Of a stretch of 64,000 bases of DNA, positions 9,876 through 60,998 are shown one piece after another (within the stretch, counting starts at the first letter, position 1; each line of letters opens with the position of its first letter). The DNA comes from a virus. The stretch lies in the UHGV virus genome UHGV-0038492, one strand, 5' to 3'. The notes under the pieces were generated by a model. The model made no database searches. It saw only the letters and a list, made by a program, of their open reading frames with translations, and had not been told where the DNA came from. The position numbers and the translations under genes were made by a program.

Positions 9876-10841
9876 TTAGCGCGGGCCTGAAGTTGGACCA
9901 TGTACACCGTCGTGGATGTGTACGCTGAAGGTAATACCGGAAATCACCGCATCCTTAACTGTAAAGACGCCCACACCTTCACCCGTACCACCGTATTTGA
10001 AGTTCTTAGCAACTTCCAAATTACCGGTGAACATCGCCTCATTACCTTCTTGCTTAAAGTTCGGCGTTTTATACGTTGTGGAACCAGAGGCTTCGGTTAG
10101 CCACGTTTCTGTTTTAAAGGTAACCGATTTCGACGCTTCGGTATTCCGAACTTCGCATTTCTCATTAATCGTTTTCGTTTCCAGGTTAATCGAACGTTTT
10201 GCGTAAATGAACGCATCTTCTTTGTTGATGTTCACCTTCGAAAGCATCGCGTTCTCAAAACCTAGATCGTCTTCCACCGAGTTAATGTAATACTTATTCC
10301 CTTTATGGTCAACGCACTGCCACGATCCGTTAGCGTTATCGAATTGGAATAACCACGCCGCTTTCTCCCCGTTCACCATGCTTGTTCTTAGGGTAACGTG
10401 TTTGTCAATCGTTGAGACGTTTAACACATACGCGTTCGACAAGTCATCCGCCATCTGGTTTTCAGGGTCAGCAGACCACGCGTAAACCGCATCCTCTAAT
10501 CGCTTAACGTTAGCGAAATTCAAATCAATCCAAAAATAAATATCGGTTTGCCCTAGACGTAGCAAGATAACGTAATCTTCACGCTTAACGTCTGGGGAAT
10601 TAATTCGGTTGGAATTAAACTTCCACCACTTTGCAGTAATCGTGTTACCGGTTTTAATCGTTAGGTTGTCGGTAGCACCCCCGGCTTCGTGTACCTTTTC
10701 AGCGGTTGAGGAAACCGATTGTACAACGGTAGGGTTCGCAAAGTTGGTTTCAATGGGAATAACACTCACCCGATCCGTACCACGAGGTTTATCTTCCGCG
10801 ACGATACCAATCGAGAAAAAGTCAACGCTGGATTTCTCCAT
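9876..10841 (-). CDS. hypothetical protein (321 aa)
   Basis: Track ORF; minus-strand ATG preceded by AAGGAA with 7-nt spacer. Confidence 0.65.
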   Translation of the reverse strand: MEKSSVDFFSIGIVAEDKPRGTDRVSVIPIETNFANPTVVQSVSSTAEKVHEAGGATDNLTIKTGNTITAKWWKFNSNRINSPDVKREDYVILLRLGQTDIYFWIDLNFANVKRLEDAVYAWSADPENQMADDLSNAYVLNVSTIDKHVTLRTSMVNGEKAAWLFQFDNANGSWQCVDHKGNKYYINSVEDDLGFENAMLSKVNINKEDAFIYAKRSINLETKTINEKCEVRNTEASKSVTFKTETWLTEASGSTTYKTPNFKQEGNEAMFTGNLEVAKNFKYGGTGEGVGVFTVKDAVISGITFSVHIHDGVHGPTSGPR

Positions 10842-10895
10842 TAGGTCGTTCCTTAGATCGGAAATGTAATCAGATATATTTTACTTAAGTGAATA

Positions 10896-11051: not shown

Positions 11052-11229
11052 TCATAGTATTACTTAAAATTTACAGATTATCCCTTTATTCTGCTACTCG
11101 GGATACCGGTAGGGGGTAGGGGGCAATATGTATACGGATATAAATAGCGGAGGTATACGTAGTATACCGACATACTCTTCCCAGAGGAACGTAGTGACTT
11201 CCTTATTCCTTTTTAGGAGAATAAACCCC

Positions 11230-11964
11230 ATGAGAGAATTGATTGACGATATCTTTACCAATACCAGTTTAGAACTTTCTTCTACGGTGGTTAACGATCT
11301 AATAGGACAACCGTATCCTGCTAAGTTAATGTCAGTCGGTACCATTAAACCTGAAGATTATCCAGACAATGACATTATCGACTGTATAATTGACGAATAC
11401 ACGATAGCCAGTTACGCCAGTCGGGTCTTCTTTGTTCTTAATAGCGAAACCAGTGTCATTTTAATCTATAAGTTGATTAGTGGTGCTGAACTTGAAGTTG
11501 TAGCCGACCACATTCGTCTTATTGCGAGCACGATTGATGATTTCGCTGATGCGCTTTTTGGAGACAGTTGGCCTTTGCAACCCCTCTTCTCTTACTTCCC
11601 TCTATTTAAACATGGAATAGGGTTAATCCGACATGCAGAAAACCTTCCCGATAACGTAGAGCTATCGCTGCTTGGACCCGGCATCGATCTTTATCCATTA
11701 GAAGACGAGGGCACGCTATATGGTTTGCGCATTTATGTTTCTGTGTTAGAGGGATACCGCGTTATTGAATTGATTGCATCAGATTTAGCAAAACAGATCC
11801 CTGAAGCAGAAACGATTTCTAAAGCCACCCACCTGGTTGAGTTTAACCCAGCCGATCCGTTATTAAAATATCACAAAGAAATTGACATTCGTAAAATCGC
11901 CACGGTAAGAGGGTGGGGTTGTGTTGAGATTACGAATAATAACCTGTTACTAGTACGTAAGTAA
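11230..11964 (+). CDS. hypothetical protein; divergent member of the GW...LLF C-terminal-module paralogue family
   Basis: Track ORF 11128-11964 trimmed to ATG 11230 preceded by AGGAGAATAAA; C-terminus IATVRGWGCVEITNNNLLLVRK aligns with the module of the next three genes. Confidence 0.6.
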   Translation: MRELIDDIFTNTSLELSSTVVNDLIGQPYPAKLMSVGTIKPEDYPDNDIIDCIIDEYTIASYASRVFFVLNSETSVILIYKLISGAELEVVADHIRLIASTIDDFADALFGDSWPLQPLFSYFPLFKHGIGLIRHAENLPDNVELSLLGPGIDLYPLEDEGTLYGLRIYVSVLEGYRVIELIASDLAKQIPEAETISKATHLVEFNPADPLLKYHKEIDIRKIATVRGWGCVEITNNNLLLVRK

Positions 11965-15159: not shown

Positions 15160-15190
15160 GGTGGGGTGTAAGCCCCACCTTTTATTTTTT
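15160..15190 (+). terminator. intrinsic terminator (GGTGGGG / CCCCACC stem + TTTTATTTTTT)
   Basis: 7-bp stem 15160-15166 / 15173-15179, 6-nt loop, immediately followed by a T-run. Confidence 0.8.
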
Positions 15191-15195
15191 GTTCG

Positions 15196-15226
15196 CTGAC
15201 ATTAAAAATAATCTCAGATATATATT
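15196..15226 (+). promoter_or_regulatory. sigma70-like promoter candidate (-35 CTGACA, 17-bp spacer, -10 TATATA; also contains TATATTAC)
   Basis: CTGACA 15196-15201, 17-nt AT-rich spacer, TATATA 15219-15224; lies between the terminator at 15160-15190 and the first gene of the secreted-protein cluster; the polymerase that would use it is unknown. Confidence 0.35.
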
Positions 15227-15284
15227 ACCTAGGGGAGAGTTAAGATTAACTCTTTTACTTGTTAACCCCACGAGGAGCAAAACA

Positions 15285-15746
15285 ATGAAAATCTTCACTT
15301 CCTTTTTAATCGCCCTTTTCGCAATCGGATTCAATACTGCAAACGCTGCAATCAATAGTTGGGAACAATTACTGAACCCAGGTCAGGCTGTTTACGAAAT
15401 TGAAGACATCGCCGGAAACGGACTGTCTATCAACTGTGACACTGAAACTGCGAATCGCAAATTTTACGGTCGGATGGTTTGGTATTACGGGGAACCTGTA
15501 GGCGCAACTAACGCTGAAGATAACACGATGGATATCGTCGTAAATGGCAAAACCTACAACATCCCTACGGTGGATGGTAGTGACAAAGCAGAACACGCTT
15601 GGGTGGCTTTCGTTAATGCTATCGGTAACGCCAAAACTTTCAGTGTGAATATCAATGGTAACGAAGCCGCTAACTTTACCGTAGAAGGCGAACGTCTGTC
15701 TGAAACTTTCTTCCAGAACTGTGGACACACCCGTCCTAACAAATAA
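15285..15746 (+). CDS. small secreted protein 1 (153 aa precursor, Sec signal peptide)
   Basis: Track ORF 15189-15746 trimmed to ATG 15285 preceded by GAGGAG; N-terminus MKIFTSFLIALFAIGFNTANAA is a typical signal peptide; two Cys in the mature part. Confidence 0.7.
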   Translation: MKIFTSFLIALFAIGFNTANAAINSWEQLLNPGQAVYEIEDIAGNGLSINCDTETANRKFYGRMVWYYGEPVGATNAEDNTMDIVVNGKTYNIPTVDGSDKAEHAWVAFVNAIGNAKTFSVNINGNEAANFTVEGERLSETFFQNCGHTRPNK

Positions 15747-15768
15747 GTAATAATCTTTTTTAGAGTGC

Positions 15769-16161
15769 GTGAAAATGAATATCAGAACTATACTTTATAC
15801 CATCATTATTTTCTGTGCAGTCGGTATTACCGGCACTTATGCTTTCGGCGATTCGGACGTCCGCCATTACGAACCGGCTCCTGACTCACCCATTATCAAC
15901 CCGGATGAGTCACCTACGTTAATGCGTAGTTTCGGTAAACTGCAAGTTTATCGCTTAGTGCGTGGTGAAACGTGTACCGGATTACTCATTGCTGACACCC
16001 GTGCACAAGTCTATCAACGTCTGACGGATATCGCCTGCGAACAACCAAAAGTCATGTCGGTCAGTATTCATCCGTTAGAGGTCGGTAACTATACTGCTGT
16101 GGACTTCTTCCATAATGCAGAACTGATTGGCCGTATTACTTTAAATCGTAGCGCTGAATAA
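15769..16161 (+). CDS. small secreted protein 2 (130 aa precursor)
   Basis: Track ORF, GTG start; hydrophobic N-terminus ILYTIIIFCAVGITGTYAFG; two Cys in the mature part. Confidence 0.65.
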   Translation: MKMNIRTILYTIIIFCAVGITGTYAFGDSDVRHYEPAPDSPIINPDESPTLMRSFGKLQVYRLVRGETCTGLLIADTRAQVYQRLTDIACEQPKVMSVSIHPLEVGNYTAVDFFHNAELIGRITLNRSAE

Positions 16162-16179
16162 TTTAATGGAGAATTTACA

Positions 16180-16662
16180 ATGAAACGTTTACATACCCTG
16201 ATGTTCTTCGTGGCTATTCTGTTCACAGGCTTTACCTTTAACGCAGAAGCGGCTACCGTAAAACAAGCACTTAGCTGTAACCCGGAAGCCTGGGCTGAAC
16301 AACCTGGTGCGTGTCCTGATATCAATACGCTCTATACCGACGATGCTACTTATAAAGCCGCAATCGATAAAGCGTTGAAACCTGTCGGACTGGACGGAAT
16401 GTTCGGTAAAGATGGTGTGATGGATGGTCCTGGCAGTGATGTTATTCCTGTGAAAATCAACGGCAAAGTCTGGCTTGAAGCTACTGGTTGTAAAAGCAAC
16501 GCCTGTGGCTGGGAATATATCACAACGCTTTATAACCCGCAGACCCATGTCGTGGTAGGTTACTATTACAACGTCGACCCAGGTTACCTGGTTTGGTTCG
16601 GCGATATCGGCGTTAATGAATTCGCTTATCTGGTTAAGAAATACGTAGCTACGGTTAATTAA
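16180..16662 (+). CDS. small secreted protein 3 (160 aa precursor) with an Ivy-like C-K-x3-C loop
   Basis: Signal peptide MKRLHTLMFFVAILFTGFTFNAEA; mature part has GCKSNACGWEY, same Cys spacing as the CKPHDC loop of Ivy-family periplasmic inhibitors but without the His. Confidence 0.7.
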   Translation: MKRLHTLMFFVAILFTGFTFNAEAATVKQALSCNPEAWAEQPGACPDINTLYTDDATYKAAIDKALKPVGLDGMFGKDGVMDGPGSDVIPVKINGKVWLEATGCKSNACGWEYITTLYNPQTHVVVGYYYNVDPGYLVWFGDIGVNEFAYLVKKYVATVN

Positions 16663-16677
16663 TTTAAGGAGTCTATC

Positions 16678-17088
16678 ATGAAAACGTTTATCAAAACTTT
16701 ACTCGTTGCTGTAACTGTTCTGTTCTCTCTTAACGTGGCAGCAAAAACAGTAAAACTACCGGCGGGTATCAAATACGTCAACAGTACCGATGAATTCTAC
16801 TGCACAGAAATTGACGGTCTGTATTGCCAGACAAAGAATTTGTTTGAATACAAAGGTAACAGATATGTTTTCGTTGTTGAGCAAGGCGGTGCCTGGTGCT
16901 ACGACAGCCCTATGTCGGTACTCAACCTGGAAACTTGGAAAGCACAGAAAATTGAATACAAAGATAACCAACTGTGCTCAGGCGAAAACAAACCGTTCTT
17001 CAAAATCAAAAATGGTGTGCCGACTGTAGGTGTTATCGACACCTCTGGAGCACCAATCGTTGTAGCTCAGGACAAACTTAAAATCTAA
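16678..17088 (+). CDS. small secreted protein 4 (136 aa precursor)
   Basis: RBS AAGGAG; signal peptide MKTFIKTLLVAVTVLFSLNVAA; four Cys in the mature part. Confidence 0.7.
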   Translation: MKTFIKTLLVAVTVLFSLNVAAKTVKLPAGIKYVNSTDEFYCTEIDGLYCQTKNLFEYKGNRYVFVVEQGGAWCYDSPMSVLNLETWKAQKIEYKDNQLCSGENKPFFKIKNGVPTVGVIDTSGAPIVVAQDKLKI

Positions 17089-17098
17089 GGAGTAAACC

Positions 17099-17488
17099 AT
17101 GCGTCTTATCTGCGCTTTGTTGGCGTTTTTCTCAATCGGAGTTATGGCTTCTACACACATCGACGATTTATTACTTACCCCGGCAACGAACACAGACTAT
17201 CACTACAACCCACCGGGTTTTGAAGTCTGCGAAGGTGATGCAGGCGAATGCCAAGAAGTTGGCGCAGATGGACGCTATATACTCGTAAAAGCAGACGGCG
17301 GGACAACCTGCCCTGCGGGTTATTATTTCGTACTTGACTCTGTAGCAAAAGAGGTGCTTCCTGTAACGACCAAAACGTGTGACCCCACAGTTGTACTAAC
17401 GCTTGCGAAAAGCAAATCACGTGACCGTCATCTTATCGTCATCGAAGAACGCGGTGAGATGCTAGGTGCTATTGAATTAGATTACTGA
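17099..17488 (+). CDS. small secreted protein 5 (129 aa precursor)
   Basis: RBS AAGGAG; signal peptide MRLICALLAFFSIGVMAS; five Cys in the mature part. Confidence 0.7.
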   Translation: MRLICALLAFFSIGVMASTHIDDLLLTPATNTDYHYNPPGFEVCEGDAGECQEVGADGRYILVKADGGTTCPAGYYFVLDSVAKEVLPVTTKTCDPTVVLTLAKSKSRDRHLIVIEERGEMLGAIELDY

Positions 17489-17499
17489 TGTGTAGTCTT

Positions 17500-17548
17500 G
17501 ACCCCGGTTCGTGCCGATTCGTCCGGGGTCCTTTTTACGACTTGTTTT
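17500..17548 (+). terminator. intrinsic terminator (GACCCCGG / CCGGGGTC stem + CTTTTT...TTTT)
   Basis: 8-bp stem 17500-17507 / 17523-17530 with 15-nt loop, followed by a T-rich tract; closes the secreted-protein operon. Confidence 0.65.
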
Positions 17549-18762: not shown

Positions 18763-18791
18763 CACCACGCTCCGTGAATATGGAGGTGGAC

Positions 18792-21296
18792 ATGTTAAAA
18801 GTTGAACGTATTGTACTTAAAGGATTTACCGGAATGGGATTACACGAAATCGAAACCTTCGATTTTACTATCCATTCCCCGACCACCATTATCCTCGGTG
18901 GTAACGGCTGCGGTAAGACCAGCTTACTGTCCGTGTTTCTACCTATCGCACCTTCGAAATCCGAATTCCGTGACGGGGGTTCCTACACCAATATCTGTTT
19001 GGTTAACGACCATCGTTACAAGTTTAAAGTTGCACGTAAAGGCAACTCACTGGTTTGCGATATCGAGAACCTGACGACGGGTACCAAAATCGTCGAGCAA
19101 GGTAATGCGAAAGTGTACAACTCTCGCGTGGAAGAAATCACGGGTATTACAAAAGAGATTAAAGAGTTACTGAACGGAGAAGTGCTTTTAACGGATGCAG
19201 GAACGGAACTGCGTCGTAAGTGGTTCTACCGTTTAAGTACATCAGACTTAACGTACGCGTTAGGTTTTTATCAACGTTTACGAAAAAACCTAACGATGTT
19301 AAACGGCGGTATTGAAATCACCAGCCGCAAAATTGCAGAGTTGCGTACCCGCGTGATTGATAACGAGGAAGAACGTCAGCAGTTAGCAACACGGTTAAAA
19401 GCATTAGAAGCGGATTTACGTGAACTCAACAAACAGATCGAACAGCTGCCAGGTCTGAATCGTGACGTTACGGTGGCAACGATTCAATCGCTATTGCTTA
19501 AAATCGAAGCACCGATTAATGCTATCTTGGAACACCGTGGCGGATTACCTACGGAAGAACAGGTAGAGGAAGCACGACGCGTTGAAGCCACTGCCCGTGA
19601 AGCGGTGGTCTCTGCTGAAACAGAGCTGTCTATGCTAAACAAAGATTTGTCTTTGTTGATGGACGAGTCTACCCGCCAAGATTACCTGATGCGAAATCAT
19701 GAAGGGTTAAAAAACACGGTTGCGAAACTGCGCGAGTTATTAAAGCAGTGGGACACCGAACACCTTTTCCCTGAACTGTTTGCAGAGACCGTTAACATCG
19801 ACCAGCTTAAAGCAGCGACGGATGCGCGTGTCTGGGGACAACGTTTAGGAACAACGCTGGACGCCATTAAGTCAACGGAGCGGTTGAACGTACTGGAAGA
19901 GAAGCTGTTGACCTTAGACCAAAACTCGTCTGGGTTGCGTGACCGACTACAACGCGTTGAAAACGTATTGCAGAACCTCAACCACGAACGGAATCACTAT
20001 TTGGAAACCGCCGAGGTTGATTGTCCGCAGTGTCAATTTAAATTCCGTCCGGGTGTGCGTCGATCGCTGCCTGAATTGGAAGAAGCCATTCGTGGGCAGA
20101 TGGAGCAACGTAATACGTTACAGACTCAGCTTGATTCCGTGTTGCGAGACCGTACGGAATTAGAATCGGACGTTAATTACATGCGTCAAGTACGGGAAAT
20201 CGTTTTAACGTATTCGAAAGACCCGGTATTGAGTTTGTTCTTTAAACGTCTCCAGGAGCGGAATGTCTTTACGGATAACCGCAGTCAGTTCGGCAGTTTG
20301 TGCGCGGAGTTCGATCGTGAACTTTATTCTGCAATTGAGTACCACGAAACGATACACCGTTTTGCTAAAGCGGAAAAAGAGTGGGAAAATGCAGTTGCAG
20401 CGGTAGGTAACGTTGACGGTGCACTACAGCAGAAAATTGCCTTCCAGCAGGAACGTTTGGGTAAGGCGACAGAAACGCTCTCAGAGCGCCGTAGAGAGCA
20501 CGCAGTTGCTAATGATACCTTTTGTTATCTAAACGAACTTAAAGCCACTGTAGACAATTTTAATGCGGTTTTTGAGCGTTTAGAGAACGATGTTAAGGTA
20601 ACATTAACCAACACGGTGGTCGAAACGTTATTAAACGCCCGAGAAAACAAGTTGGATGCGTTCACCACAGCACGGGAACGGTACCGTCAAATGGAAAACG
20701 AACTCAACCAACTTACTGCGTTAGAAAAGGAGTTATCAGATTTACAAGCGCAGCAATTTAATAACAAACTGATGATTCAAGCGTTCTCACCTGAGAAAGG
20801 GGTGTTACGCAAATACTTCTACAACGCTATCGTGAGAATCACGGAATTGATGACGCGGTATATCGAACAAGTCTGGACCTACCCTATGCGGGTCATGCCG
20901 TGTGACTTAACCGACGGTGACTTAGACTACACGTTCCCAGTGCAGTTGAAAACCCATCCTGAACCGGTACCTGACGTACGGAAAGGGTCGAAAGCGCAGC
21001 GAGCCATCTTTAATTTGATGTTTCGTTTAACCGCTTACAAGGCCCTGAAACTTCATCAGTATCCGCTACTGTTGGATGAACCGTCAGAAGGGATGGATGA
21101 AGAACACCGAAATAACCTCGTTGGGTTTATTAAAACCTTGGCGAATTCTGGTGAGTTCTCTCAGTTACTGGTGGTGTCTCACGAAGCAGAAATTCATTCA
21201 AAACTTAACGAAGCCGCATACTGTGTTATTGAACCTGAAGGCGTAACACTGCCTGCGGTTTACAACGAAGGAGTAAAAATTGTCTACGCAAACTGA
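18792..21296 (+). CDS. Rad50 / SbcC-like ABC ATPase with coiled coil and CxxC zinc hook (834 aa)
   Basis: Track ORF 18774-21296 trimmed to ATG 18792 preceded by GGAGG; N-terminal Walker A GGNGCGKTS; central coiled-coil-like region with CPQC; C-terminal Walker B LLLDEP and H-loop VVSHEA. Confidence 0.8.
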   Translation: MLKVERIVLKGFTGMGLHEIETFDFTIHSPTTIILGGNGCGKTSLLSVFLPIAPSKSEFRDGGSYTNICLVNDHRYKFKVARKGNSLVCDIENLTTGTKIVEQGNAKVYNSRVEEITGITKEIKELLNGEVLLTDAGTELRRKWFYRLSTSDLTYALGFYQRLRKNLTMLNGGIEITSRKIAELRTRVIDNEEERQQLATRLKALEADLRELNKQIEQLPGLNRDVTVATIQSLLLKIEAPINAILEHRGGLPTEEQVEEARRVEATAREAVVSAETELSMLNKDLSLLMDESTRQDYLMRNHEGLKNTVAKLRELLKQWDTEHLFPELFAETVNIDQLKAATDARVWGQRLGTTLDAIKSTERLNVLEEKLLTLDQNSSGLRDRLQRVENVLQNLNHERNHYLETAEVDCPQCQFKFRPGVRRSLPELEEAIRGQMEQRNTLQTQLDSVLRDRTELESDVNYMRQVREIVLTYSKDPVLSLFFKRLQERNVFTDNRSQFGSLCAEFDRELYSAIEYHETIHRFAKAEKEWENAVAAVGNVDGALQQKIAFQQERLGKATETLSERRREHAVANDTFCYLNELKATVDNFNAVFERLENDVKVTLTNTVVETLLNARENKLDAFTTARERYRQMENELNQLTALEKELSDLQAQQFNNKLMIQAFSPEKGVLRKYFYNAIVRITELMTRYIEQVWTYPMRVMPCDLTDGDLDYTFPVQLKTHPEPVPDVRKGSKAQRAIFNLMFRLTAYKALKLHQYPLLLDEPSEGMDEEHRNNLVGFIKTLANSGEFSQLLVVSHEAEIHSKLNEAAYCVIEPEGVTLPAVYNEGVKIVYAN

Positions 21297-23584: not shown

Positions 23585-24271
23585 ATGTTTCGTACCTTCT
23601 TTCTTTTACTGGTAACACTTTTCGCGTTTAACGCATACGCATCCAAATCCGCACCCAGTGCCAAACACCATCGTGAATTCGAAATGATTCAAGACCGTTT
23701 CGAACGTGTAAAACCGTTGATTGTGGAAATCTCCCGAAAGCAGGGTGTTGATCCTAAGTTGATGACCACGCTAATCTATCGAGAATCACGGTTTAATCCG
23801 AAGGCGTATAATCGAACGTCTAAAGCGCACAGTCTGGTTCAGATGCTACCGAGCACAAAGCGTAATTTACTAAAACTCTACGGCAACGAAATCGGACTTA
23901 GTCGTAACGCGGATTTGTATAATCCTCGTAATGCGGTGCTATTGGCTTCCGTCTACGTTAAACATTTAGAAAAGGGGTTGACTAAACGACTCAAACGCAA
24001 GCCCACTATTGCAGAAATTGCATTGGCTTATCACTGGGGTGAAAGTGGTGCACACGCCAGGATTAAAAGCAAGTCTCGGGCGGCACAACGAGAAATGGCG
24101 AGCTTTATGAAAGATGCAACGTTCTACAGTGCGAAAATCGACAAGCCTGTAGCATCTCGTCAGCTTGCGTTTGCGAAGAAACCAGAACGCCAGATTCAGT
24201 TAGCGGAAGTTAACCGAATTTGGGATACGATAAACACCAGTTTTCCATTTAAACAAGGAGTCACCCTTTGA
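23585..24271 (+). CDS. secreted lytic transglycosylase (SLT-domain, candidate endolysin)
   Basis: Track ORF 23558-24271 trimmed to ATG 23585 preceded by GGAGAA; signal peptide MFRTFFLLLVTLFAFNAYA; SLT family-1 signature YRESRFNPKAY...AHSLVQM. Confidence 0.8.
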   Translation: MFRTFFLLLVTLFAFNAYASKSAPSAKHHREFEMIQDRFERVKPLIVEISRKQGVDPKLMTTLIYRESRFNPKAYNRTSKAHSLVQMLPSTKRNLLKLYGNEIGLSRNADLYNPRNAVLLASVYVKHLEKGLTKRLKRKPTIAEIALAYHWGESGAHARIKSKSRAAQREMASFMKDATFYSAKIDKPVASRQLAFAKKPERQIQLAEVNRIWDTINTSFPFKQGVTL

Positions 24272-53864: not shown

Positions 53865-56800
53865 TTAACCTGCACGTCTAACGTTAAGCTGTCGTGCTGG
53901 CTGTTCAACGGACATTTGTCGTGATGCTGAACCTGCTGGTGCCGTAGGTTTAGACGATACAGTGTTTTGTACCGGCTGCGGGCGTTGTTTAAGGATCGTG
54001 ACAATCTCTTTGAGATAACCCGCCGATTCTTTTGCAACAGCCAACTGTTGAACACTAATCGGATCACCACTGCTGAGAGTAGGCCCGTTTTGTGCATCAG
54101 AAGTAACCGCAGGTGCCGGTTTACTCGTCGCTGCTGCACGCTGCACAGCACCTTCTTTCACCTTCTCGACATCCTCTTCCGGCAACCCTTCATTTCTGGC
54201 TCCGGCTGCAACAGTCTCCCCAATCACTGAGGCATCACCGCCTGCACTACTACCGCCAGGTGACGGTACTGCTGGGCCACCACTGGTTGCGGCTTTGACG
54301 TTGTCAGCACCCATCGCGCCTTTCTCTGCTAACGCATCGTCACGACGCTCAGCATTCGATGCAGGTAGGTTATCAGCCGGATCAGAAATCGACGGATCAT
54401 TAGCTGCTCCTGCTGCTACCGCCGGAGAGGAGGCAACCGCAGGCGTTAGCCCTTTCACCATGTCTTTCGTTGAAGCCGGATTAGCCGCAATTTCGTTTGT
54501 CGCCACAGCACCCATGCGGCGGTTCAGTTCATTAATAACTTCACCAACAGTACGAATACGAACAATCTGTTTGCCACGCATTTCGTAGAAGACCCCCTTA
54601 TTACCTCTAAGGATTTGAGGAGTAATGCCTTCTGCTTTGTCGGCTGGCATGTTCGGATTCTGACGCCACGCATTAAGGAACTTCTTACCACCGCCTGGAC
54701 CCAAGAAGTGATACAGATACGCAACAGCCGGAGGCGGCTCTACACCACCCAGGTCTTTCTGCGCCTGCATGATATTGTCACGAATAAACTGTACGCCGAG
54801 GATGGTATTTGCCCACGGGTCATACTGGTTTACTTGCGGTATACCGTACCGACGAGAATATCCTTTCATCATTCCAGACCACGTTTTGTCAATGAACTGG
54901 AACAACCCTGCTGCCGACGCACCTGGGTTCTTGACACCGTATTTGAAACCAGATTCGGCGTTCGCCATCGCAATCGCGACCGCAGGCGGAACACCTAAGG
55001 TATTTGCGACATCCGCAATCATCGCTTTAACGCCGTCTACGTTAGGTGACTCACCACTACCCAGTTTACTGATTGGATATTTCTCAGCCAAGGTTTTGTA
55101 GTCACCCTCTTTGACGTCTCCGAGTTTAATCCCAGATTGGCCCGTAGAGAACTTCGCGTAATTGCTAATACCCATCTCACCCACAACTTGAGACAAGTCG
55201 CCCGGAGTACCGTAAGACGCACCACCGTTTGGCAAGTACCCATCGTTAGACGCTGTACCCCAATCAACGACACCTTTGAAACGATCTTTGGTGTCTTCGT
55301 CGGTTTGGTACATTCTCGTCGCACGATCGGCTTTCTGCCACTTCGCACGTTTACCCGCTGCGGGTGTAGACCGCAGGGTATTACGAACAGCCAGGTCAGG
55401 TTCTTTGGACAGTTCTTTCAGGTTGGCAAGTTCGGTAGCAACAGAACCTGCGTCGGTGTTTGCTTCTTCACCCAGTGGGTTGAATGGAATCTCCCACACG
55501 GACTGACGAATACCACCCTTCATGTTGTAAGCGCCACGAATCATCAACGCCAATTCGTACATGAACCCACCGGATACTTTCAGTTCGGTAGGGTCTGCTT
55601 GCGGAATGTAACGTTTCAGACCAACAACGTAGGTCATATACGCCGGTAAGAAACGGTTGTAGAACCAGTTCTTACAACGCTCCTCTTTAGGGCCACCTAT
55701 CAGGTCAGGCGAGATAACCGCAATGGCTTCTTTCCAGTTGCCTTTATAGGTACAGTTCTTCACATCAATGTCTTTCAACACGTTCTTCTCTAACAGCGTG
55801 AAAAGATTACGTGTTGTTTGGTTGATAGTAACTGCGCCATAGGTCTTCCACCTGATCGATTCCAGGTCTTCCAAATCGCTTTTCTTCGGTAACGAATGCC
55901 AATCAACTTGGATTTGAACCTGCTCGGTTCCATCTTCCCAACCTTCAACCTTCGCAACTTTCTCGTTACGTTCAGCATCCGCATTCGCCAGTACCTGACT
56001 GGTTTCAGCAACAGACGCAACTTTATGTCCTTCGACAGCGTCACGCATACCCGAACGTTGTTTCCGTTTGTCGTCAGTACGCATGTTGATTGACCGCCAC
56101 ACACGTTCCTGTGCTTCGACAACCTCTTCCCCTGACAAGAACTCTGCCGGAGTAAAGGTAACGAAGTCCCACGCTTTAGAGAACCAACCCTGGTTAACTT
56201 TACGCGGGTCAGTCAACGAACGGAACTCCGCAGAATCTTTACCCATCTTCATTTTGTTGTAGAGGGTAATCATGTCCGCTTTCGACACTTTCTTCGGATC
56301 ACCGACATCTGCTAGAGCGATATCGTTATCCATGGACTTCAGTGCTGAAATCCAGCGGAGGTAAATCGGTGCGAAACGTTGTAGCATAAACGCAGTAAAT
56401 GCTAACATCTCACCACGTTCTTCTAAGTTAACACCGAACCCTTCTGCGAGTTTCTTCACGTCTTCGGAAGACAAGCCACGTAATTGTGCTTCACCCCCTT
56501 CGGTATACGAGACGTAAGGTTTCAAAGCGTCTTCTAAATAACGGGCTTTCATACCGTCTTCAGAAGACCACTGGTCGTAGTCACGGAAACCGTATTGTGC
56601 CAGACGCATATAGTCGAGGTATTGTGCTTTCACACGGGTGGCGCATTTATACGCCCAATAACCCAGACCAGCGACAGTCGCACCGATCGCAATTGCAGGC
56701 CATCCCACCGCCGCTACCACCGTAGACGCAGCCGAGGCTACCGCAGTCACTGCCGGAACCGCTAAACGTTGTACGGCAAACTTACCAACGTTCCACGCTG

Positions 56801-59800
56801 CTTTACCAAGGAACCCGGTGGGTTTAAAAATACCCCACTTCGCAACTTTACCCAGTATCGAACCCACCGTACCTAAGATACTCACGATTGGCCCTACTAA
56901 CGGTAAGTCTTTGAGGAAGTCCATCACCCCGCCTTTACGTCCTTTCTGCTCAGCGGTTTTCTTGGCTTTCTCTTCTTCTTTAGAACGTCTACGACGACGG
57001 AAGAATTGGAAGTAGTCACGTTTTTCATCGTTGGCTGCCGGTTTGTTACGCTGTCCGAACTTACTGAACATCGTACGAATCAGGCCATCTGGTGCACCGG
57101 CTCGCTCCGCAGAATCACGCATGGTGTTAAACCAGGACATTTCCTGAAGGTTAACCATCCGGTTCAAACGTTCCAGTAATGCTGAACCAACACTCTTCGC
57201 TTTCTGCTTACCTTTGTTGATAACGCGTCCTGCGGTATCCGTTGCGGTTTCGAAATCCTCCTTCGCTGCGTTAAACACGCGTGTTGGAGAAACCTTACCA
57301 CGAGCGTACAAGTGTTGGCGGTAAAACTCCGCAACGTCGTCATCACGACCTGCTAAACGCGACTCCGCCCGATAACGTGTGGCAATGTCGTAGCGTGGAT
57401 CACGGAAACTATCTACTGTTTCGCCAAAGCGTCCACGGAAACGGCCAAACCACCCTTTACCCGCAGCACCCCAACGAGACAGTCTATCGCCAACGCCATG
57501 ACGGAAACGTGAGAATCGGTCACGTTGTCTGCCTCGCCAATCCCGGAAATTCTGGAAGTAGTCTTTAAATCCGTCGCGGAAATCCTTAACACGGTTAAGC
57601 ATCCCTTTGATAGATTTCGAGCCAACGTTTTTCTCCAGTTGCTCCGTCCAGGATTCATCTTCAGGCTCACCGTCTAAACGACGGTTAAGGAGTTTATAGA
57701 TACGAATCAGGATATGGTTGGTCTTACGGCCATTCGACCAAGAGAACATGCTGAAGCCACCGCCAGAACCACCTTCCTTACGATTCTGCCACCACCGGGT
57801 AAGCGGGTTGTCAGTCGCTAACTCTTTGAATTTCTCAAAGCCACGTTTTGCATTGTTCCACAAACGAGCAGGCATTCCGGTTACGCGAGAAATCATGCTT
57901 TGTAAACGCGTTTTCTCACTGCCCTCAGGAATCTCATTAAGCCACTCACGCGCTTTCTCGAAGATAGACGCTGCTCTTGGCGAGATTAGTCCAATCAGTT
58001 TCTTCGGTAAGTTAACAGCTTTGTTTACTGCTGTACCTGCTTTACCGGAGATATACTGGAACAGGGCCTGGAGTTTACCGCCTTTATAGAAGCGCAATTT
58101 ACCTGCTGCCGCTAGATCGGCCGCTGCGAGAATCAAGTTCCCGGCTTCGTCGACAATATCACGACCTAGCTTAATGTCGTCTAACGAACGGAGTTGTACC
58201 AGCTTATTAGTCTTAGGGTCAGCCTGATAATACTCACCTGCCTCTAAGCGGCTACCTTGTAAAACGACATTGCCTTTTTCGTCGTAGATGTCTCGAACAC
58301 CAAGAACACCTTTCCCGAAGGCGACCGCTGAATTCCAGCCTGTGGACAATGTACCAGTAACTAAACCTTTCAGTCGTTCAAAAACACCCGGGCCGTCAGA
58401 TGGGCCACCGGAGAATTTCCCACGGATAAAACTGCCCAGTGACTGTAAACGTCCTTTCCCTCTCAGGAACATGTTCTTCGCAAAACGACCTGCACCCGTA
58501 CCGGTGTCCCAAAGTACGCCCGCCCAACGACGGAACAGACCGCTTTCACCAAGCACGATGCGTTTACGCTTGCGTTTGTTACCGGCGCTACCTGCATCTT
58601 CAGAAGTGTCATCCTCACCGTCACGACCACCGCCTAAGCTGGCCAGCAGAATACCCTCCTCATCCATGTTCTTGACATGTTTCAGAATTTCCTGCACGGT
58701 GTTGGATTCGGATTTGTTACGGATAGCATCGACGATTCTATCAAACTGCTGTTCTAGTCCTGCGGTGGTATCAGGGCGTTCACTTAACAGTTCAACAAAG
58801 TTGGTGGATTTTTCACCGTAAAGGACAGCAGCAAGTTGTCGTGCTGACAGTCCACGACCACCACGACCGCCTTTACCTTTAACGGAGTCAATCGTCGACT
58901 CGTCACCGGTTACGGAGGCGTCTACCCCTAAACGACGCAAATAGTCACCTAACGCAGAACCGTTTTTCAGTTTGCGCTGGATTTCTTGTTCACGCGTTAA
59001 CGAACGGCCGGAACGGGTTTTCCCCATGGCCAGGTCATTAAACAGCGTATACGGATCGTTAATGTCTTTATCTACATCAAACCGATCGTTCTTCGCATCG
59101 TACTTAAAGATGCCTGCATCACGTAACGCATTCTCACCGTAGATAATTGAAGCTTCGTCTACCGTGTTTTGACGTGCACGTATCGTTGACTGAATGGCTG
59201 AAATCTTACTAGCAATCTCATTGCTAAGTTCGTGATGACCGCCTGTCAGTTCTGAAGACCGTGCTTCTAAGACCGCCTGAATCGCTTCTACCGCGTTTGC
59301 ATTCATGTAACGATACATGTGCATCGGGTCTTTCAGCAGACTGCCTACGTCGAATGCCTTACCTTCAGACGCACGGGATTCAATATAGTCCGCCAGCGCC
59401 TGGCGAGTTTTCGAATCCAGGGTTTTGTCTTTGTCGATAAAGTCAACGGTTTCGTTAATGTACTGCTGTAAACGCTTCCGCTGTTCATCGTTCGCAACCG
59501 CTTTACGGACACGGTTACCGATAACTTTACGGTCAATCATCCCACGCGTGGTTAAATCGTACACCTGGTCGTGGTGTTCGCCGTACCCGCGACGAATAGA
59601 TTTGTTAATCTCCGTCAGCAAAGTCGGGATGACTTCCGTGATGCTAAGATACGCTTTACGGTCGAACTTCGCGGCGGCGGATAACGCTTCTGCTGAACGT
59701 TCTTCTAAAGCTAATCCCTCACGACGCAGCGGTGTCACTAACCCCATCTCGTGCATTAAACGGAAGACGGTGGCCAATGGGCCGTCTATCTCACCAGCAA

Positions 59801-60998
59801 TCGCCGAGTTAGAGATAGACGATAAGTTACCGAACCCGTATCGTGCCAGCTGAAGCCGTTTCATGACTTCTGGGTTCTTTTCTAACTCACTGCGTGTCCA
59901 GTTCTGTAAACGTTCTACCTGAGGCTGTAAGAATCGTTTTGCTAACCAACTACCAGCAAACCCTGCGACTTTACCTCGGGAGTTCGTACGACGACGTTCT
60001 GGCGACAGCGTAGAACTATCTTCCATGCCGAAGTCGTCTTCCTGACTCATTGACAGAACTTGTTCTAATATCCCGCGTCCGTCGCTGAAGATATTCGAAA
60101 TCTTTTTCTTCGCGTTCTCACGAATCTGATCAATAAAGTTATCCGCGTAACGCAAGGGGTTCATCCATTCGGCAGCTTTACGTTTTACGTTAGCCCAACG
60201 AACTTCAGAGAATTCCTCTTTTGCGTAGTCCGGCAACGCGGTGTTTTTAACAATCGCTTCAAGTGCCGGGGTGTTACGGCTAAACTCATCCTGTTTAAGT
60301 TTAGCAATATCTTGCAACGCGAATAACGTACGGTATTGCAGCTCTAACTGTTTACGCTGAACGTTAAGCATTACCCCACGACTTAAACTGGTCGTCAGGT
60401 TAACGTCTTTCGCAATACCGATAACCGTCTGGAACAGCGCATCGGACTTCATGTCCTTGATGGTGTCGCGAAGACGGTCTTCTACCATTCCTTCCTGAAC
60501 CTCGCGTTGTTGTTCAGGTGTTTGTGGTGTGCCTGCAAAAACAGAGTCTAACTCACGATCCATTAACGCTTGTTTAGGATCGTAATTCCCGTAATCGTAC
60601 TGGTCGCTTTTCGCCCACTTGTCGATCTTACGGGTTACACTGTCAGGCAAATACCGTTTTAGGGTTGGGCCTAACTGACGAGCTTGTGCCTTCACTACAC
60701 GGGAGGTCTTTTCAATCTCGTCTTTCGTATGGGCCAGAATGTCTTGACCTGCGGCTTTGACGTTCTTATAACCTTCATAAGCGTCAGTCGCCGGTTTTGG
60801 CATTCCTTTTAAAATGACCTGATCACGTTTATTTTCGGGCCAGATAGTCGACAACGCCGACTTACGGGCAGCACGAAATGTGTCCATGACCGGGTTACGC
60901 GATTGGTCTTGTTGACGAGGGGGCTCATCAAAATCGTCCCAGTCGTCCATGTTATCAAGATCGATTTCATCGAAATCGTCTTTACCTTTTTTAGCCAT
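53865..60998 (-). CDS. giant virion protein (2377 aa) with internal hydrophobic region and soluble-lytic-transglycosylase domain; resembles phiKZ gp181-type tail / ejection protein
   Basis: Single 7134-nt ORF; N-terminus MAKKGKDDFDEIDLDNMDDWDDFDE; hydrophobic stretch LPLVGPIVSILGTVGSILGKV...AVTAVASAASTVVAAVGWPAIAIGATVAGLGYWAY; SLT motif NAESGFKYGVKNPGASAAGLFQFIDKTW encoded near 54880-54950. Confidence 0.85.
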   Translation of the reverse strand: MAKKGKDDFDEIDLDNMDDWDDFDEPPRQQDQSRNPVMDTFRAARKSALSTIWPENKRDQVILKGMPKPATDAYEGYKNVKAAGQDILAHTKDEIEKTSRVVKAQARQLGPTLKRYLPDSVTRKIDKWAKSDQYDYGNYDPKQALMDRELDSVFAGTPQTPEQQREVQEGMVEDRLRDTIKDMKSDALFQTVIGIAKDVNLTTSLSRGVMLNVQRKQLELQYRTLFALQDIAKLKQDEFSRNTPALEAIVKNTALPDYAKEEFSEVRWANVKRKAAEWMNPLRYADNFIDQIRENAKKKISNIFSDGRGILEQVLSMSQEDDFGMEDSSTLSPERRRTNSRGKVAGFAGSWLAKRFLQPQVERLQNWTRSELEKNPEVMKRLQLARYGFGNLSSISNSAIAGEIDGPLATVFRLMHEMGLVTPLRREGLALEERSAEALSAAAKFDRKAYLSITEVIPTLLTEINKSIRRGYGEHHDQVYDLTTRGMIDRKVIGNRVRKAVANDEQRKRLQQYINETVDFIDKDKTLDSKTRQALADYIESRASEGKAFDVGSLLKDPMHMYRYMNANAVEAIQAVLEARSSELTGGHHELSNEIASKISAIQSTIRARQNTVDEASIIYGENALRDAGIFKYDAKNDRFDVDKDINDPYTLFNDLAMGKTRSGRSLTREQEIQRKLKNGSALGDYLRRLGVDASVTGDESTIDSVKGKGGRGGRGLSARQLAAVLYGEKSTNFVELLSERPDTTAGLEQQFDRIVDAIRNKSESNTVQEILKHVKNMDEEGILLASLGGGRDGEDDTSEDAGSAGNKRKRKRIVLGESGLFRRWAGVLWDTGTGAGRFAKNMFLRGKGRLQSLGSFIRGKFSGGPSDGPGVFERLKGLVTGTLSTGWNSAVAFGKGVLGVRDIYDEKGNVVLQGSRLEAGEYYQADPKTNKLVQLRSLDDIKLGRDIVDEAGNLILAAADLAAAGKLRFYKGGKLQALFQYISGKAGTAVNKAVNLPKKLIGLISPRAASIFEKAREWLNEIPEGSEKTRLQSMISRVTGMPARLWNNAKRGFEKFKELATDNPLTRWWQNRKEGGSGGGFSMFSWSNGRKTNHILIRIYKLLNRRLDGEPEDESWTEQLEKNVGSKSIKGMLNRVKDFRDGFKDYFQNFRDWRGRQRDRFSRFRHGVGDRLSRWGAAGKGWFGRFRGRFGETVDSFRDPRYDIATRYRAESRLAGRDDDVAEFYRQHLYARGKVSPTRVFNAAKEDFETATDTAGRVINKGKQKAKSVGSALLERLNRMVNLQEMSWFNTMRDSAERAGAPDGLIRTMFSKFGQRNKPAANDEKRDYFQFFRRRRRSKEEEKAKKTAEQKGRKGGVMDFLKDLPLVGPIVSILGTVGSILGKVAKWGIFKPTGFLGKAAWNVGKFAVQRLAVPAVTAVASAASTVVAAVGWPAIAIGATVAGLGYWAYKCATRVKAQYLDYMRLAQYGFRDYDQWSSEDGMKARYLEDALKPYVSYTEGGEAQLRGLSSEDVKKLAEGFGVNLEERGEMLAFTAFMLQRFAPIYLRWISALKSMDNDIALADVGDPKKVSKADMITLYNKMKMGKDSAEFRSLTDPRKVNQGWFSKAWDFVTFTPAEFLSGEEVVEAQERVWRSINMRTDDKRKQRSGMRDAVEGHKVASVAETSQVLANADAERNEKVAKVEGWEDGTEQVQIQVDWHSLPKKSDLEDLESIRWKTYGAVTINQTTRNLFTLLEKNVLKDIDVKNCTYKGNWKEAIAVISPDLIGGPKEERCKNWFYNRFLPAYMTYVVGLKRYIPQADPTELKVSGGFMYELALMIRGAYNMKGGIRQSVWEIPFNPLGEEANTDAGSVATELANLKELSKEPDLAVRNTLRSTPAAGKRAKWQKADRATRMYQTDEDTKDRFKGVVDWGTASNDGYLPNGGASYGTPGDLSQVVGEMGISNYAKFSTGQSGIKLGDVKEGDYKTLAEKYPISKLGSGESPNVDGVKAMIADVANTLGVPPAVAIAMANAESGFKYGVKNPGASAAGLFQFIDKTWSGMMKGYSRRYGIPQVNQYDPWANTILGVQFIRDNIMQAQKDLGGVEPPPAVAYLYHFLGPGGGKKFLNAWRQNPNMPADKAEGITPQILRGNKGVFYEMRGKQIVRIRTVGEVINELNRRMGAVATNEIAANPASTKDMVKGLTPAVASSPAVAAGAANDPSISDPADNLPASNAERRDDALAEKGAMGADNVKAATSGGPAVPSPGGSSAGGDASVIGETVAAGARNEGLPEEDVEKVKEGAVQRAAATSKPAPAVTSDAQNGPTLSSGDPISVQQLAVAKESAGYLKEIVTILKQRPQPVQNTVSSKPTAPAGSASRQMSVEQPARQLNVRRAG

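Follow-up and report, generated by a model that had tools for sequence, protein, structure and literature searches.

An operon of five small, probably exported proteins, one with a predicted divergent Ivy fold, in a nucleus-forming jumbo phage of E. coli

We focus here on a question raised by a compact operon in the virus genome UHGV-0038492, of which a 64,000-nt stretch was analysed (the window): what would the source of this DNA, an E. coli jumbo phage of the nucleus-forming SPN3US/phiKZ type, gain from sending five small cysteine-containing proteins into the periplasm? The original prediction had proposed that the cluster controls cell-wall hydrolases, either for self-control of lysis or for superinfection exclusion. 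Our preferred answer, to which we give a probability of about 40%, is that the operon is an early periplasmic cassette that guards the envelope and excludes other phages, with the product of gene 3 inhibiting a peptidoglycan-cleaving enzyme in the way that T4 Spackle does.

Layout, export signals and promoter

The predicted arrangement of five tightly packed genes on the plus strand (15285-17488) between two hairpin terminators was confirmed from open reading frames and folding (Table 1). Gaps within the operon are 10-28 nt, and a GGAG/AAGGAG-like Shine-Dalgarno (SD) site precedes all five genes, that of gene 2 being weaker. The products, said to be 129-160 aa long, span 128-160 aa. The upstream terminator belongs to the preceding gene, which stops at 15155, and folds at -16.7 kcal/mol (z -2.76). 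The downstream hairpin, at -20.6 kcal/mol (z -2.59), was overlooked by a pattern scan because its loop is 14 nt.

Table 1. Features of the operon, the island-shared block and the candidate target genes
Feature	Position	Strand	Description
Upstream intrinsic terminator	15160..15190	+	GC-rich 8-bp stem 15160-15179, then T-run (TTTTATTTTTT); 5' limit of operon
Early-promoter-like element	15214..15252	+	TCAGATATATATTACCTAGGGGAGAGTTAAGATTAACTC; core TATATTAC at 15221-15228; conserved across genera
Gene 1	15285..15746	+	153 aa, secreted YfjT-family protein, predicted signal peptide 1-21, 2 Cys
Gene 2	15775..16161	+	128 aa, secreted family-A protein, predicted signal peptide ~1-23, 2 conserved Cys
Block common to CP4-type genomic islands	16173..17121	+	gene 3, gene 4, and SD, ATG and first ~20 nt of gene 5
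Gene 3	16180..16662	+	160 aa, secreted divergent Ivy-fold protein, predicted signal peptide 1-24
Gene 4	16678..17088	+	136 aa, secreted four-cysteine all-beta protein, family C, predicted signal peptide 1-22
Gene 5	17099..17488	+	129 aa, secreted four-cysteine protein, family D, predicted signal peptide 1-17
Closing terminator	17500..17536	+	hairpin 17500-17530 (GACCCCGG...CCGGGGTC, then CTTTTT), T-run 17532-17536
Candidate target: secreted SLT-domain endolysin	23585..24271	+	signal peptide MFRTFFLLLVTLFAFNAYA; Pfam SLT E 3.7e-14
Candidate target: 2377-aa protein	53865..60998	-	SLT lytic-transglycosylase domain, residues 1996-2081; Pfam SLT E 3.9e-8

Signal peptides were called by reading sequence features and, as the original prediction held, all five N-termini look like Sec-type signals: a basic n-region is followed by a hydrophobic core and then by a cleavage site of the small-x-small type. 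The predicted sites are ANA/A, TYA/F, AEA/A, VAA/K and VMA/S for genes 1 to 5, the slash marking the cut. A crude hydrophobicity scan of all 114 ATG-initiated ORFs of 60 aa or more picked out six, of which four belong to the cluster; gene 3 fell narrowly below threshold. The signal peptide of gene 3, read from its sequence as MKRLHTLMFFVAILFTGFTFNAEA/A, is kept in all homologs. A lipoprotein reading of gene 2 was rejected, the lipobox-like LAAC being found in SPN3US gp180 only and not conserved. The mature proteins do contain cysteines, in numbers not of 2-5 as claimed but of 2, 2, 4, 4 and 4, all even. Canonical signal peptides and even cysteine counts together suggest that the five proteins are exported to the periplasm and support the view of the operon as a compact unit of exported, disulfide-type proteins.

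The promoter had been proposed to be sigma-70-like, CTGACA-17-TATATA. Both hexamers are present at 15196-15224, but the sigma-70 reading does not hold: a consensus scan makes no call there, and in relatives the -35-like hexamer becomes CTAACA, TGCGAT or TTAATA while the TATATATTAC...GGTGAGAG element is unchanged. The proposed -10 hexamer in fact falls inside this longer conserved element, which is 91% identical in nucleotide sequence to that at the same position before the syntenic cluster of Machinavirus phages, proteins being only about 42% identical between the genera. It is kept in SPN3US, SNU29, SPAsTU and all relatives of the lineage, and it recurs in a different intergenic region (10872-10891), making two copies in the window where 0.01 would be expected. 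The published early promoter consensus of phiKZ and 201phi2-1 matches the TATATTAC element (PMC7058600; PMC7598289), and use of such motifs by the virion RNA polymerase (vRNAP) has been described (PMC7598289). The operon promoter is thus more likely a phiKZ-type (chimallivirus) early, or virion RNA polymerase, motif than a sigma-70 one, and it is from this motif alone that we infer early timing.

The Ivy-like protein and its neighbours

The link of the third protein to Ivy, initially a matter of one short motif (GCKSNACGWEY, residues 103-113), is now backed by four independent lines of evidence, Pfam, NCBIfam and profile alignments among them. Pfam Ivy (PF08816) is matched by six of eight members of the Ivy-like family (best E 0.0077). 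Gene 3 itself scores 14.3 bits against it (E 0.045; curated threshold 21 bits) and 19.2 bits against NCBIfam Ivy NF007443 (E 8e-4; equivalog threshold 180 bits), reaching neither threshold. In a profile search of PDB sequences and in hhalign, its CKxxxCG falls in register with Ivy CKPHDCG, and both cysteines, the lysine and the following G-W of the loop are invariant across the eight sequences. The conserved cysteines are Cys33, Cys45 and the two of the loop C104-K-S-N-A-C109-G-W, and they probably form two disulfides, Cys33-Cys45 and C104-C109. An AlphaFold model built on the eight sequences (pLDDT 75) has the central five-stranded antiparallel sheet and flanking helices of Ivy. The C-x4-C loop, closed by its putative disulfide, lies at the homologous position between two strands. 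As modelled, gene 3 is thus a divergent member of the Ivy fold. A match to the beta-1,4-mannanase 3vup was set aside as weak (E 0.017-0.09) and without fold support.

The divergence is considerable. Compared with E. coli Ivy/YkfE and P. aeruginosa Ivyp1/Ivyp2, gene 3 is 17% identical and under all curated thresholds, carries an additional conserved N-terminal cysteine pair (Cys33, Cys45), has a loop of the form CKSNAC or CKA[NH]AC rather than CKPHDC, and belongs to a family whose genes are found in the early operon of a phage and on mobile islands, in every case beside a four-cysteine gene. The Ivy motif is cited as CKPHDC (PMC3660660), and it includes the His that inserts into the active site. 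This strict motif is absent from the phage alleles, which read CKSNAC or CKANAC, with neither Pro nor Asp and with Asn in place of the key His; E. coli island alleles read CKSNAC, CKANAC, CKANTC or CKAHAC, so that His occurs in a minority only. No match to genes 1 and 3 was returned by tblastn against deposited phages (50,697 phage genomes for gene 3), and the BFVD set of viral structures yielded no Ivy-like relative.

The other four proteins are not further Ivy relatives, an idea that was dropped when hhalign linked the Ivy-like family to none of families A-E. Gene 1 is assigned, on full-length similarity, to the YfjT family (PF27224): a 135-aa alignment with YfjT from CP4-57 of E. coli K-12 shows 27% identity (local blastp, E 4e-14), with conserved W, C, P, G, W, F and N columns, and the 90%-identical ortholog of gene 1 in a sister phage has a precomputed Pfam PF27224 match. 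The family is rare, with 13 representatives at E<=1e-3 among 1.84 billion sequences (phmmer), YfjT-like ones included. Gene 2 matches phrog_9424 (E 6e-42) and is 50% identical to SPN3US gp180 and 46% to Asesino gp201; gene 5 matches phrog_5248 (E 5e-31) and is 48-52% identical to SPN3US gp183 and Asesino gp204. Weak profile links join family A (gene 2) to family D (gene 5; hhalign 60%, E 9e-5), and family D to the K-12 lipoprotein YfjS (59%, E 9e-5). For genes 1, 4 and 5 nothing usable came from profile searches, PDB sequences or a Pfam copy without PF27224, and no PADLOC model matches any of the five proteins.

Genes 4 and 5 form a paralogous four-cysteine all-beta family whose fold has no known match. 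The gene 4 model resembles neither Ivy, MliC/PliC, PliG or PliI nor any other lysozyme-inhibitor fold. A match of the four-cysteine profile to ThreeFoil (3pg0; E 6e-5) was treated as an artefact, being the sum of three repeat matches that are singly insignificant. MliC/PliC, PliG and PliI, small periplasmic proteins or lipoproteins of beta structure that send a loop into the lysozyme active site, may offer a functional analogy for genes 4 and 5.

Distribution in jumbo phages and bacterial islands

Conservation and selection speak against a chance arrangement. The cluster is kept in 53 deposited jumbo-phage genomes, gene 5 being present in 53 phage records. All five genes are under purifying selection (dN/dS 0.04-0.27). 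In the same sister-phage comparisons gene 3 evolves fastest, at 0.21-0.27 against 0.04-0.14 for the other genes, with gene 2 at 0.04-0.05. In SPN3US (gp180-gp183) and Asesino (gp201-gp204), a syntenic cluster of hypothetical proteins has the same promoter element, orthologs of genes 2, 4 and 5 and, likewise, two small genes and an SMC-like gene downstream. These phages differ in that a family-B four-cysteine protein takes the place of the Ivy-like one and the YfjT-family gene, gene 1, is absent. Ivy-type inhibition is thus not essential to the operon, because relatives of the SPN3US type have a four-cysteine protein instead.

The same families occur in bacteria. Gene 4 is only 34-36% identical to its SPN3US and Asesino versions, against 76-91% to copies in E. 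coli islands, and the block shared with CP4-type islands (Table 1) is 87% identical at the nucleotide level between phage and island. Among 5426 complete E. coli genomes, 2409 have a match, and in 1878 of them the match covers 80% or more of the query (35-44% of the genomes by the two counts). Homology stops about 10-45 nt before the gene 3 start, and nothing of gene 2 is left in front of the block in E. coli; at the other end, the island copies finish in a 7-codon stub of gene 5. Phage and island copies alike are under purifying selection, and gene 3 dS between them is 0.23, below sister-phage divergence. The gene 3-gene 4 pair is not annotated in the 18-kb CP4-57 region of K-12 that was examined, where yfjS and yfjT, relatives of genes 5 and 1, occupy the slot (preceded by a YfjP-like GTPase and yfjR, a regulator gene) that the pair fills elsewhere. 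The likeness is distant: YfjS and YfjT are only 22-27% identical to the phage proteins, and YfjS is a lipoprotein without the first two cysteines. Islands of Yersinia and Pantoea have a WYL-domain regulator at this slot, and the island GTPases give only weak PADLOC matches, to LeoA and LeoBC. In phages, and in this one island slot in four bacterial genera, members of the Ivy-like, four-cysteine and YfjT families are found together, which suggests a functional link between them.

Two features favour transfer from phage to island, the phage-like GC of the island copies of the gene 3 and gene 4 block and the 7-codon stub of gene 5. Mosaic alleles, however, show that genes are still being exchanged, and some islands hold further low-GC secreted genes, so that this direction is tentative. 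A more ambitious reading is that enterobacterial CP4-type islands have repeatedly captured these genes from the early operons of jumbo phages that are virulent and form a nucleus. The bacteria would deploy the proteins in the periplasm against phages, blocking the virion transglycosylase at wall penetration, the phage would use them for superinfection exclusion, and the four-cysteine beta family would be a new class of periplasmic inhibitors or entry blockers; taken whole, we consider this quite unlikely. The instances it would cover are the Ivy-like and four-cysteine pair in E. coli and the four-cysteine and YfjT pairs in Yersinia, Pantoea and K-12.

Candidate targets and competing readings

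Two peptidoglycan enzymes were found in the window, each of them an SLT transglycosylase, in agreement with the claim that the phage carries a secreted SLT protein and a second SLT domain; the virion role ascribed to the latter is assumed by analogy, so that the 2377-aa protein is taken to be virion-associated or cell-puncturing. The secreted enzyme is 51-53% identical to the 'putative endolysin' of SPN3US and Asesino. Ivy, MliC and related inhibitors act through a loop inserted in the lysozyme active site, and we know of no SLT-family (family 1) enzyme shown to be an Ivy target. Gene 3 retains the C-K-x-x-x-C-G loop, probably clamped by a disulfide, with which Ivy enters a lysozyme-like active site, and is therefore proposed to be an inhibitor. 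Precedents come from Ivy proteins, whose inhibitory action extends to MltB of P. aeruginosa and, in weak form, to MltA and MltB of E. coli (PMC10139938), and from T4 Spackle, an early periplasmic inhibitor of tail lysozyme that leads to superinfection exclusion (PMC7677548).

In the reading that we prefer, the operon would be transcribed from its virion-RNA-polymerase promoter directly upon DNA entry, and the periplasm of the infected cell would be loaded with five small, Sec-exported, disulfide-bonded proteins. The gene 3 product would bind and block a periplasmic peptidoglycan-cleaving enzyme, most likely an external one, for instance the SLT transglycosylase in the virion of a second phage particle, or a tail lysozyme belonging to another phage. 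The outcome would be envelope protection and superinfection exclusion, with the products of genes 1, 2, 4 and 5 as further envelope-acting factors of the same programme, and the families in the CP4-type island slot of Enterobacterales would probably serve the bacterium likewise. Spackle (gp61.3) offers the closest parallel, as a small, disulfide-containing periplasmic protein with a signal peptide, encoded by an early phage gene (PMC7677548). The parallel does not extend to homology: Spackle is an alpha-helical bundle that acts allosterically and whose function is demonstrated, whereas gene 3 would be a beta-sheet protein inserting a loop.

Self-control of lysis, in which the Ivy-like protein, perhaps with its neighbours, restrains the phage's own exported SLT endolysin until lysis time, has lost ground. 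The endolysin has a cleavable-looking signal peptide besides its SLT domain and might need restraint because that peptide takes it to the periplasm without a holin, and lytic transglycosylases can be inhibited by Ivy-family proteins. However, SPN3US and Asesino have the same secreted endolysin and no Ivy-like gene, and the gene pair persists in E. coli islands where this endolysin is absent. An early promoter also suits a late enzyme poorly, an argument that has been made for Spackle and the T4 endolysin as well (PMC7677548), and we regard this explanation as improbable. The operon might instead be a host-benefit ('moron' or orphan immunity) cassette guarding the wall from exogenous muramidases (animal lysozyme, muramidase bacteriocins, type VI peptidoglycan-glycosidase effectors), with phage and islands as mere carriers. 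Lysozyme inhibition is the established function of Ivy, and the pair, carried by 35-44% of complete E. coli genomes, is under purifying selection in them. One deposited record, a circular 'plasmid' from a urinary isolate of E. coli, is in fact a 96.9%-identical phage genome, which suggests that the phage can be carried in a state that makes survival of the host important. Set against this, E. coli already has a chromosomal ivy, a virulent phage would gain little from long-term protection of its host, the operon stands behind an early phage promoter, and type VI or bacteriocin genes were not found adjoining the cluster in phages or islands; on balance host benefit seems unlikely.

It is also conceivable, if rather unlikely, that the proteins have nothing to do with peptidoglycan hydrolases and instead block entry or remodel the envelope, binding outer-membrane receptors, Tol/Ton components or the injection site (compare T5 Llp and T4 Imm), or that the Ivy-fold protein is a periplasmic chaperone for the others. 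Four of the five proteins are without an inhibitor fold or family, and YfjS, the weak family D relative, is a lipoprotein. K-12 Ivy is annotated as 'periplasmic chaperone, inhibitor of vertebrate C-type lysozyme', and gene 3 always adjoins a four-cysteine gene, in phage and island. On the other hand, the C-K-x3-C-G-W loop is strictly kept among alleles only 60-65% identical, which points to an Ivy-type loop interaction.

The gene 3 dS of 0.23 documents that genes have recently passed between islands of the host and a jumbo phage that is virulent. A concrete, testable function can now be offered for a very common 'hypothetical' gene pair of E. coli islands and for K-12 yfjS and yfjT, which would gain a function if the repeated-capture reading were true. 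Jumbo phages considered for therapy could have their host range influenced by the copies that islands carry. Early biology of phiKZ/SPN3US-type phages has mostly been framed around the cytoplasmic vesicle and the nucleus. If the exclusion mechanism that we prefer is true, no virus before this one would have been assigned an Ivy-type inhibitor, and these phages would have a periplasmic early programme.

The operon and its early-class promoter motif

The five genes form a conserved, compact operon under selection, packed on the plus strand between 15160 and 17548 with spacers of 10–28 nt and a Shine-Dalgarno-like sequence before each. This arrangement, and the two strong bounding terminators of the original prediction, are borne out by the coordinates, spacers and folding energies listed below. 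In comparison with sister phages, dN/dS is 0.04–0.27 in all five, and the genes are thus real. As had been proposed, a signal peptide is predicted on every precursor, from a basic n-region, a hydrophobic core and a small-x-small site at each N-terminus. Disulfide-bonded periplasmic proteins are expected to have even cysteine counts, and the mature counts here, all even, fit that class. Of the window's 114 ATG-ORFs that reach 60 aa, a crude hydrophobicity scan picked out only six as candidates, four of them from the cluster, with gene 3 just under threshold; by simple combinatorics, with about 70 genes and about seven exported, we estimate that five exported in a row would arise by chance at ~1e-4. 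Elsewhere, a small ORF begins with a strong signal-peptide-like segment (MKLLLFIMILCVGLVSNSYG) and has no Pfam match.

Coordinates and properties of the operon and of other window features
Feature	Position	Strand	Properties
Second motif copy	10872-10891	+	AGATATATTTTACTTAAGTG
ORFs flanking second copy	9876-10841; 11128-11964	-; +	divergent
Upstream terminator	15160-15179 (stem), then T-run		textbook type; -16.7 kcal/mol, z -2.8
Promoter-motif site	15200-15254
Gene 1	15285-15746	+	153 aa; 2 mature Cys; small-x-small site ANA↓A
Gene 2	15775-16161	+	128 aa; 2 mature Cys; small-x-small site TYA↓F
Gene 3	16180-16662	+	160 aa; 4 mature Cys; small-x-small site AEA↓A
Gene 4	16678-17088	+	136 aa; 4 mature Cys; small-x-small site VAA↓K
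Gene 5	17099-17488	+	129 aa; 4 mature Cys; small-x-small site VMA↓S
Block shared with E. coli	16173-17121		gene 3, gene 4, and SD, ATG and first ~20 nt of gene 5
Downstream terminator	17500-17530 (8-bp GC stem), then CTTTTT		-20.6 kcal/mol, z -2.6
SMC-like protein gene	18774-21296
Endolysin gene	23585-24271		SLT transglycosylase; predicted signal peptide
Small ORF	29505-29960	+	151 aa
SLT-domain protein gene	53865-60998		2377 aa; SLT domain at residues 1996-2081

The CTGACA-17-TATATA hexamers, originally read as a sigma-70 promoter, do exist in the window; they are probably not a working signal, and an early phage motif takes their place. The element TCAGATATATATTACCTAGGTGAGAGTT..ATTAACTC stays in all close relatives, whereas the -35-like hexamer varies (CTAACA, TGCGAT or TTAATA). 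In an alignment this element is conserved in five lineages, with a diverged version in three more, and the window site is 91% identical to one just upstream of the syntenic cluster of Machinavirus phages, where the proteins are only ~42% identical. Its core, TATATTAC, is the phiKZ early promoter, and the extended form fits the 201phi2-1 consensus (PMC7058600); AT-rich motifs of this type mark early operons transcribed by the injected virion RNA polymerase (PMC7598289). The window holds two matches to the motif against 0.01 expected. From this early-class motif, the operon is thus predicted to be expressed early. The second copy sits in a divergent intergenic region. In SPN3US (L002:3795-3870), SNU29, SPAsTU and Wellington, the first cluster gene is preceded by a GC-rich hairpin with a T-run (GGCTACCTTCGGGTAGCC TTTTTT), which in the first three lies between motif and gene; the Wellington stretch compared did not reach the motif. 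This promoter-proximal terminator-like element, absent from the window phage, could be an attenuator.

Gene 3 and the Ivy fold

The proposed link between gene 3 and Ivy, the inhibitor of vertebrate lysozyme, is strengthened by several independent comparisons. The Pfam Ivy model matches the gene 3 protein at E 0.045 and six of eight family members (best E 0.0077), the NCBIfam Ivy model matches it at E 8e-4, and hhalign aligns the family with K-12 Ivy over 75 columns (E 6e-4). Among PDB sequences, the family profile finds E. coli Ivy, with CK(A/S)NACG exactly over CKPHDCG and the flanking strands matching, and the AlphaFold model (pLDDT 75, pTM 0.71), five strands with flanking helices, reads as an Ivy fold. 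One truncated E. coli copy is labelled 'Ivy family c-type lysozyme inhibitor' by NCBI's pipeline. Strict membership and the CKPHDC motif itself did not stand: all scores fall under the curated cut-offs, and the loop reads CKSNAC in the phage, while E. coli alleles have CKANAC, CKANTC or CKAHAC. We call gene 3 a divergent subfamily with a predicted Ivy fold; like Ivy, it retains the predicted disulfide-clamped loop, its Lys and the Gly that follows, and, unlike Ivy, it has Asn, rarely His, at the His position and adds a second conserved pair, Cys33 and Cys45. At the level of modelled structure, we regard an Ivy-fold protein with a conserved disulfide loop as established. We found no relatives of gene 3 in deposited phage genomes or among BFVD viral structure models.

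Relatives in jumbo phages and bacterial islands

Gene content and order place the window phage among the jumbo phages of the SPN3US/Erskinevirus group, relatives of phiKZ: its SMC-like protein shares 69% identity with gp207 of Erwinia phage Asesino and 58% with gp186 of SPN3US, and gene order is syntenic among the three. Its own lineage was not found among 50,697 deposited phage records; it is present in IMG/VR contigs of 107 and 225 kb, in metagenome contigs L030 (145 kb) and L028 (228 kb), and as a 221,873-bp circular 'plasmid' from a urinary E. coli isolate (96.9% identity over the queried 1.1 kb). The host is thus E. coli. RefSeq 'plasmid p98232-contig_4' (NZ_CP173450.1, L025; urinary E. 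coli isolate, Egypt), which matches window 16100-17200, is 96.4% identical across the whole 2.5-kb region with identical surrounding gene order, and looks like a jumbo-phage genome, in carrier state or co-purified, filed as a plasmid. For its intact Ivy-like gene (L025:2563-3063), PGAP gives the status of pseudogene, 'missing N-terminus'; the call looks like an artefact of annotation, likely because the reference proteins are 223-225-aa E. coli forms with an upstream ORF remnant fused in frame.

In 53 deposited phages, which span four genera, this position holds a cluster of four to six small genes. We grouped their products into five families: A resembles gene 2, B SPN3US gp181, C gene 4 and D gene 5, while E is an extra member in Wellington-type phages. 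Profile comparison (hhalign 96-98%) shows B, C and D to be paralogs with four aligned Cys in common, and the link between A and D is weak (hhalign 60%, E 9e-5); no Pfam or PDB relative of B, C or D was found. In the window phage, gene 3, which is unrelated to family B, fills that family's slot, and gene 1 is extra. Gene 1 is assigned by homology to the YfjT family (27% identity to K-12 YfjT over 135 aa, E 4e-14), and its 90%-identical ortholog has a precomputed Pfam YfjT match; its YfjT-like family is rare, with 13 representatives in 1.84 billion, and no solved structural relative was found. In sister phages the operon opens with an extra 123-aa gene that lacks a signal peptide (L028:2243-2614, L030:2191-2562); the two copies are only 46% identical, and the window phage has none. 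For Salmonella phages SPFM1, 6, 8, 12, 14 and 20 (P0100-P0105), the deposited family-B products read as SPN3US gp181 with its blocks scrambled and segments placed in reverse order; this seems to be an artefact of annotation or translation in those entries.

The original prediction did not foresee that the gene pair is shared with bacteria. The homologs of gene 3 are encoded on E. coli chromosomes, and the shared block, 87% identical in DNA, is matched in 2409 of 5426 complete E. coli genomes, of which 1878 align over ≥80% of the query. The E. coli pair keeps the 15-nt spacer of the phage, is followed by a 7-codon gene-5 stub (MRFSAHY*) and lies in CP4-type integrative islands, flanked on one side by GTPase, dynamin, RdcB and patatin genes and on the other by a DUF932, antirestriction, RadC, DUF987 and CbeA/CbtA module, which in strain VE-T9 adjoins a tRNA-Ser gene. 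Gene 3 of the window is 92-96% identical in protein to the VE-T9-type allele (dS 0.23), whereas its identity to the Ivy-like gene of two sister phages is just 63-64% (dS ~1.1-1.3); the flanking genes of these phages are 75-96% identical to the window's. Together with mosaic alleles, this argues for recent and repeated exchange between phage and island. The gene-5 stub and base composition (46.0 and 41.1% GC, phage-like, in the island copies; 52-57% in their neighbours) tentatively favour an original direction from phage to island, although some islands hold another secreted gene of low GC whose product has a family-D-like motif. In some islands the Ivy-like gene is preceded by one for a 180-aa secreted protein (L003:7098-7640, GC 42%) with the family-D-like motif C..YFYILD..C; in others the first ~65 residues of this protein remain, fused in frame to the N-terminus of the Ivy-like ORF.

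This pattern holds generally: in islands of Yersinia rohdei and Pantoea ananatis, the slot behind the genes for a GTPase and a WYL regulator is taken by a family-B gene and a YfjT-family gene. In Y. rohdei the pair has GC below that of its neighbours, and its family-B protein is 63% identical to Asesino gp202, compared with 41% for SPN3US gp181. In K-12 CP4-57 the slot is filled by yfjT and by yfjS, which is weakly related to family D (hhalign 59%, E 9e-5). The Ivy-like, four-Cys and YfjT families thus move together in both phages and islands. The E. coli alleles of the gene pair are under purifying selection (dN/dS 0.14-0.22). GTPase and dynamin-family genes beside the pair (L026:222-5677) weakly match LeoA and LeoBC of Eleos defence in PADLOC, and the patatin gene weakly matches phospholipase effector models; the slot may thus lie in a defence-type neighbourhood.

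Possible roles of the exported proteins

In Ivy-type and related inhibitors, a loop between beta-strands enters the lysozyme active site. Both peptidoglycan enzymes that the window itself encodes are SLT transglycosylases: the endolysin with its predicted signal peptide and a domain of the 2377-aa protein. We tentatively favour, at a probability of about 0.4, an early cassette for envelope guarding or exclusion: the periplasm would be loaded with cluster proteins soon after infection, and gene 3 would block an incoming enzyme that cleaves peptidoglycan, most plausibly the SLT transglycosylase of another phage particle. T4 Spackle, an early periplasmic protein, blocks the tail lysozyme gp5, which results in superinfection exclusion (PMC7677548). 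Against this guard role, the gene 3 loop lacks Pro, Asp and, in the phage, His; SLT-family enzymes are, to our knowledge, not known Ivy targets. Inhibition of transglycosylases by Ivy, furthermore, is weak where measured: Ivy proteins inhibit P. aeruginosa MltB, and E. coli MltA and MltB weakly (PMC10139938).

That the proteins guard against exogenous lysozymes or muramidase toxins seems unlikely to us. Restraint of the phage's own secreted endolysin is the least probable reading, weakened because gene 3 is missing from relatives that have the same endolysin, and the endolysin is missing from the islands. Roles unrelated to hydrolases, in receptor or entry blocking or as chaperones, we consider rather improbable. 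No PADLOC defence model matched any of genes 1–5, and we found no published function for YfjS or YfjT.

The observation behind the original prediction is thus confirmed and its interpretation partly supported. What is new is a divergent, predicted Ivy-fold protein within a predicted early phage operon of predicted exported proteins, common to widespread bacterial islands; if gene 3 acts as an envelope guard, the island copies would protect bacteria in the same way.
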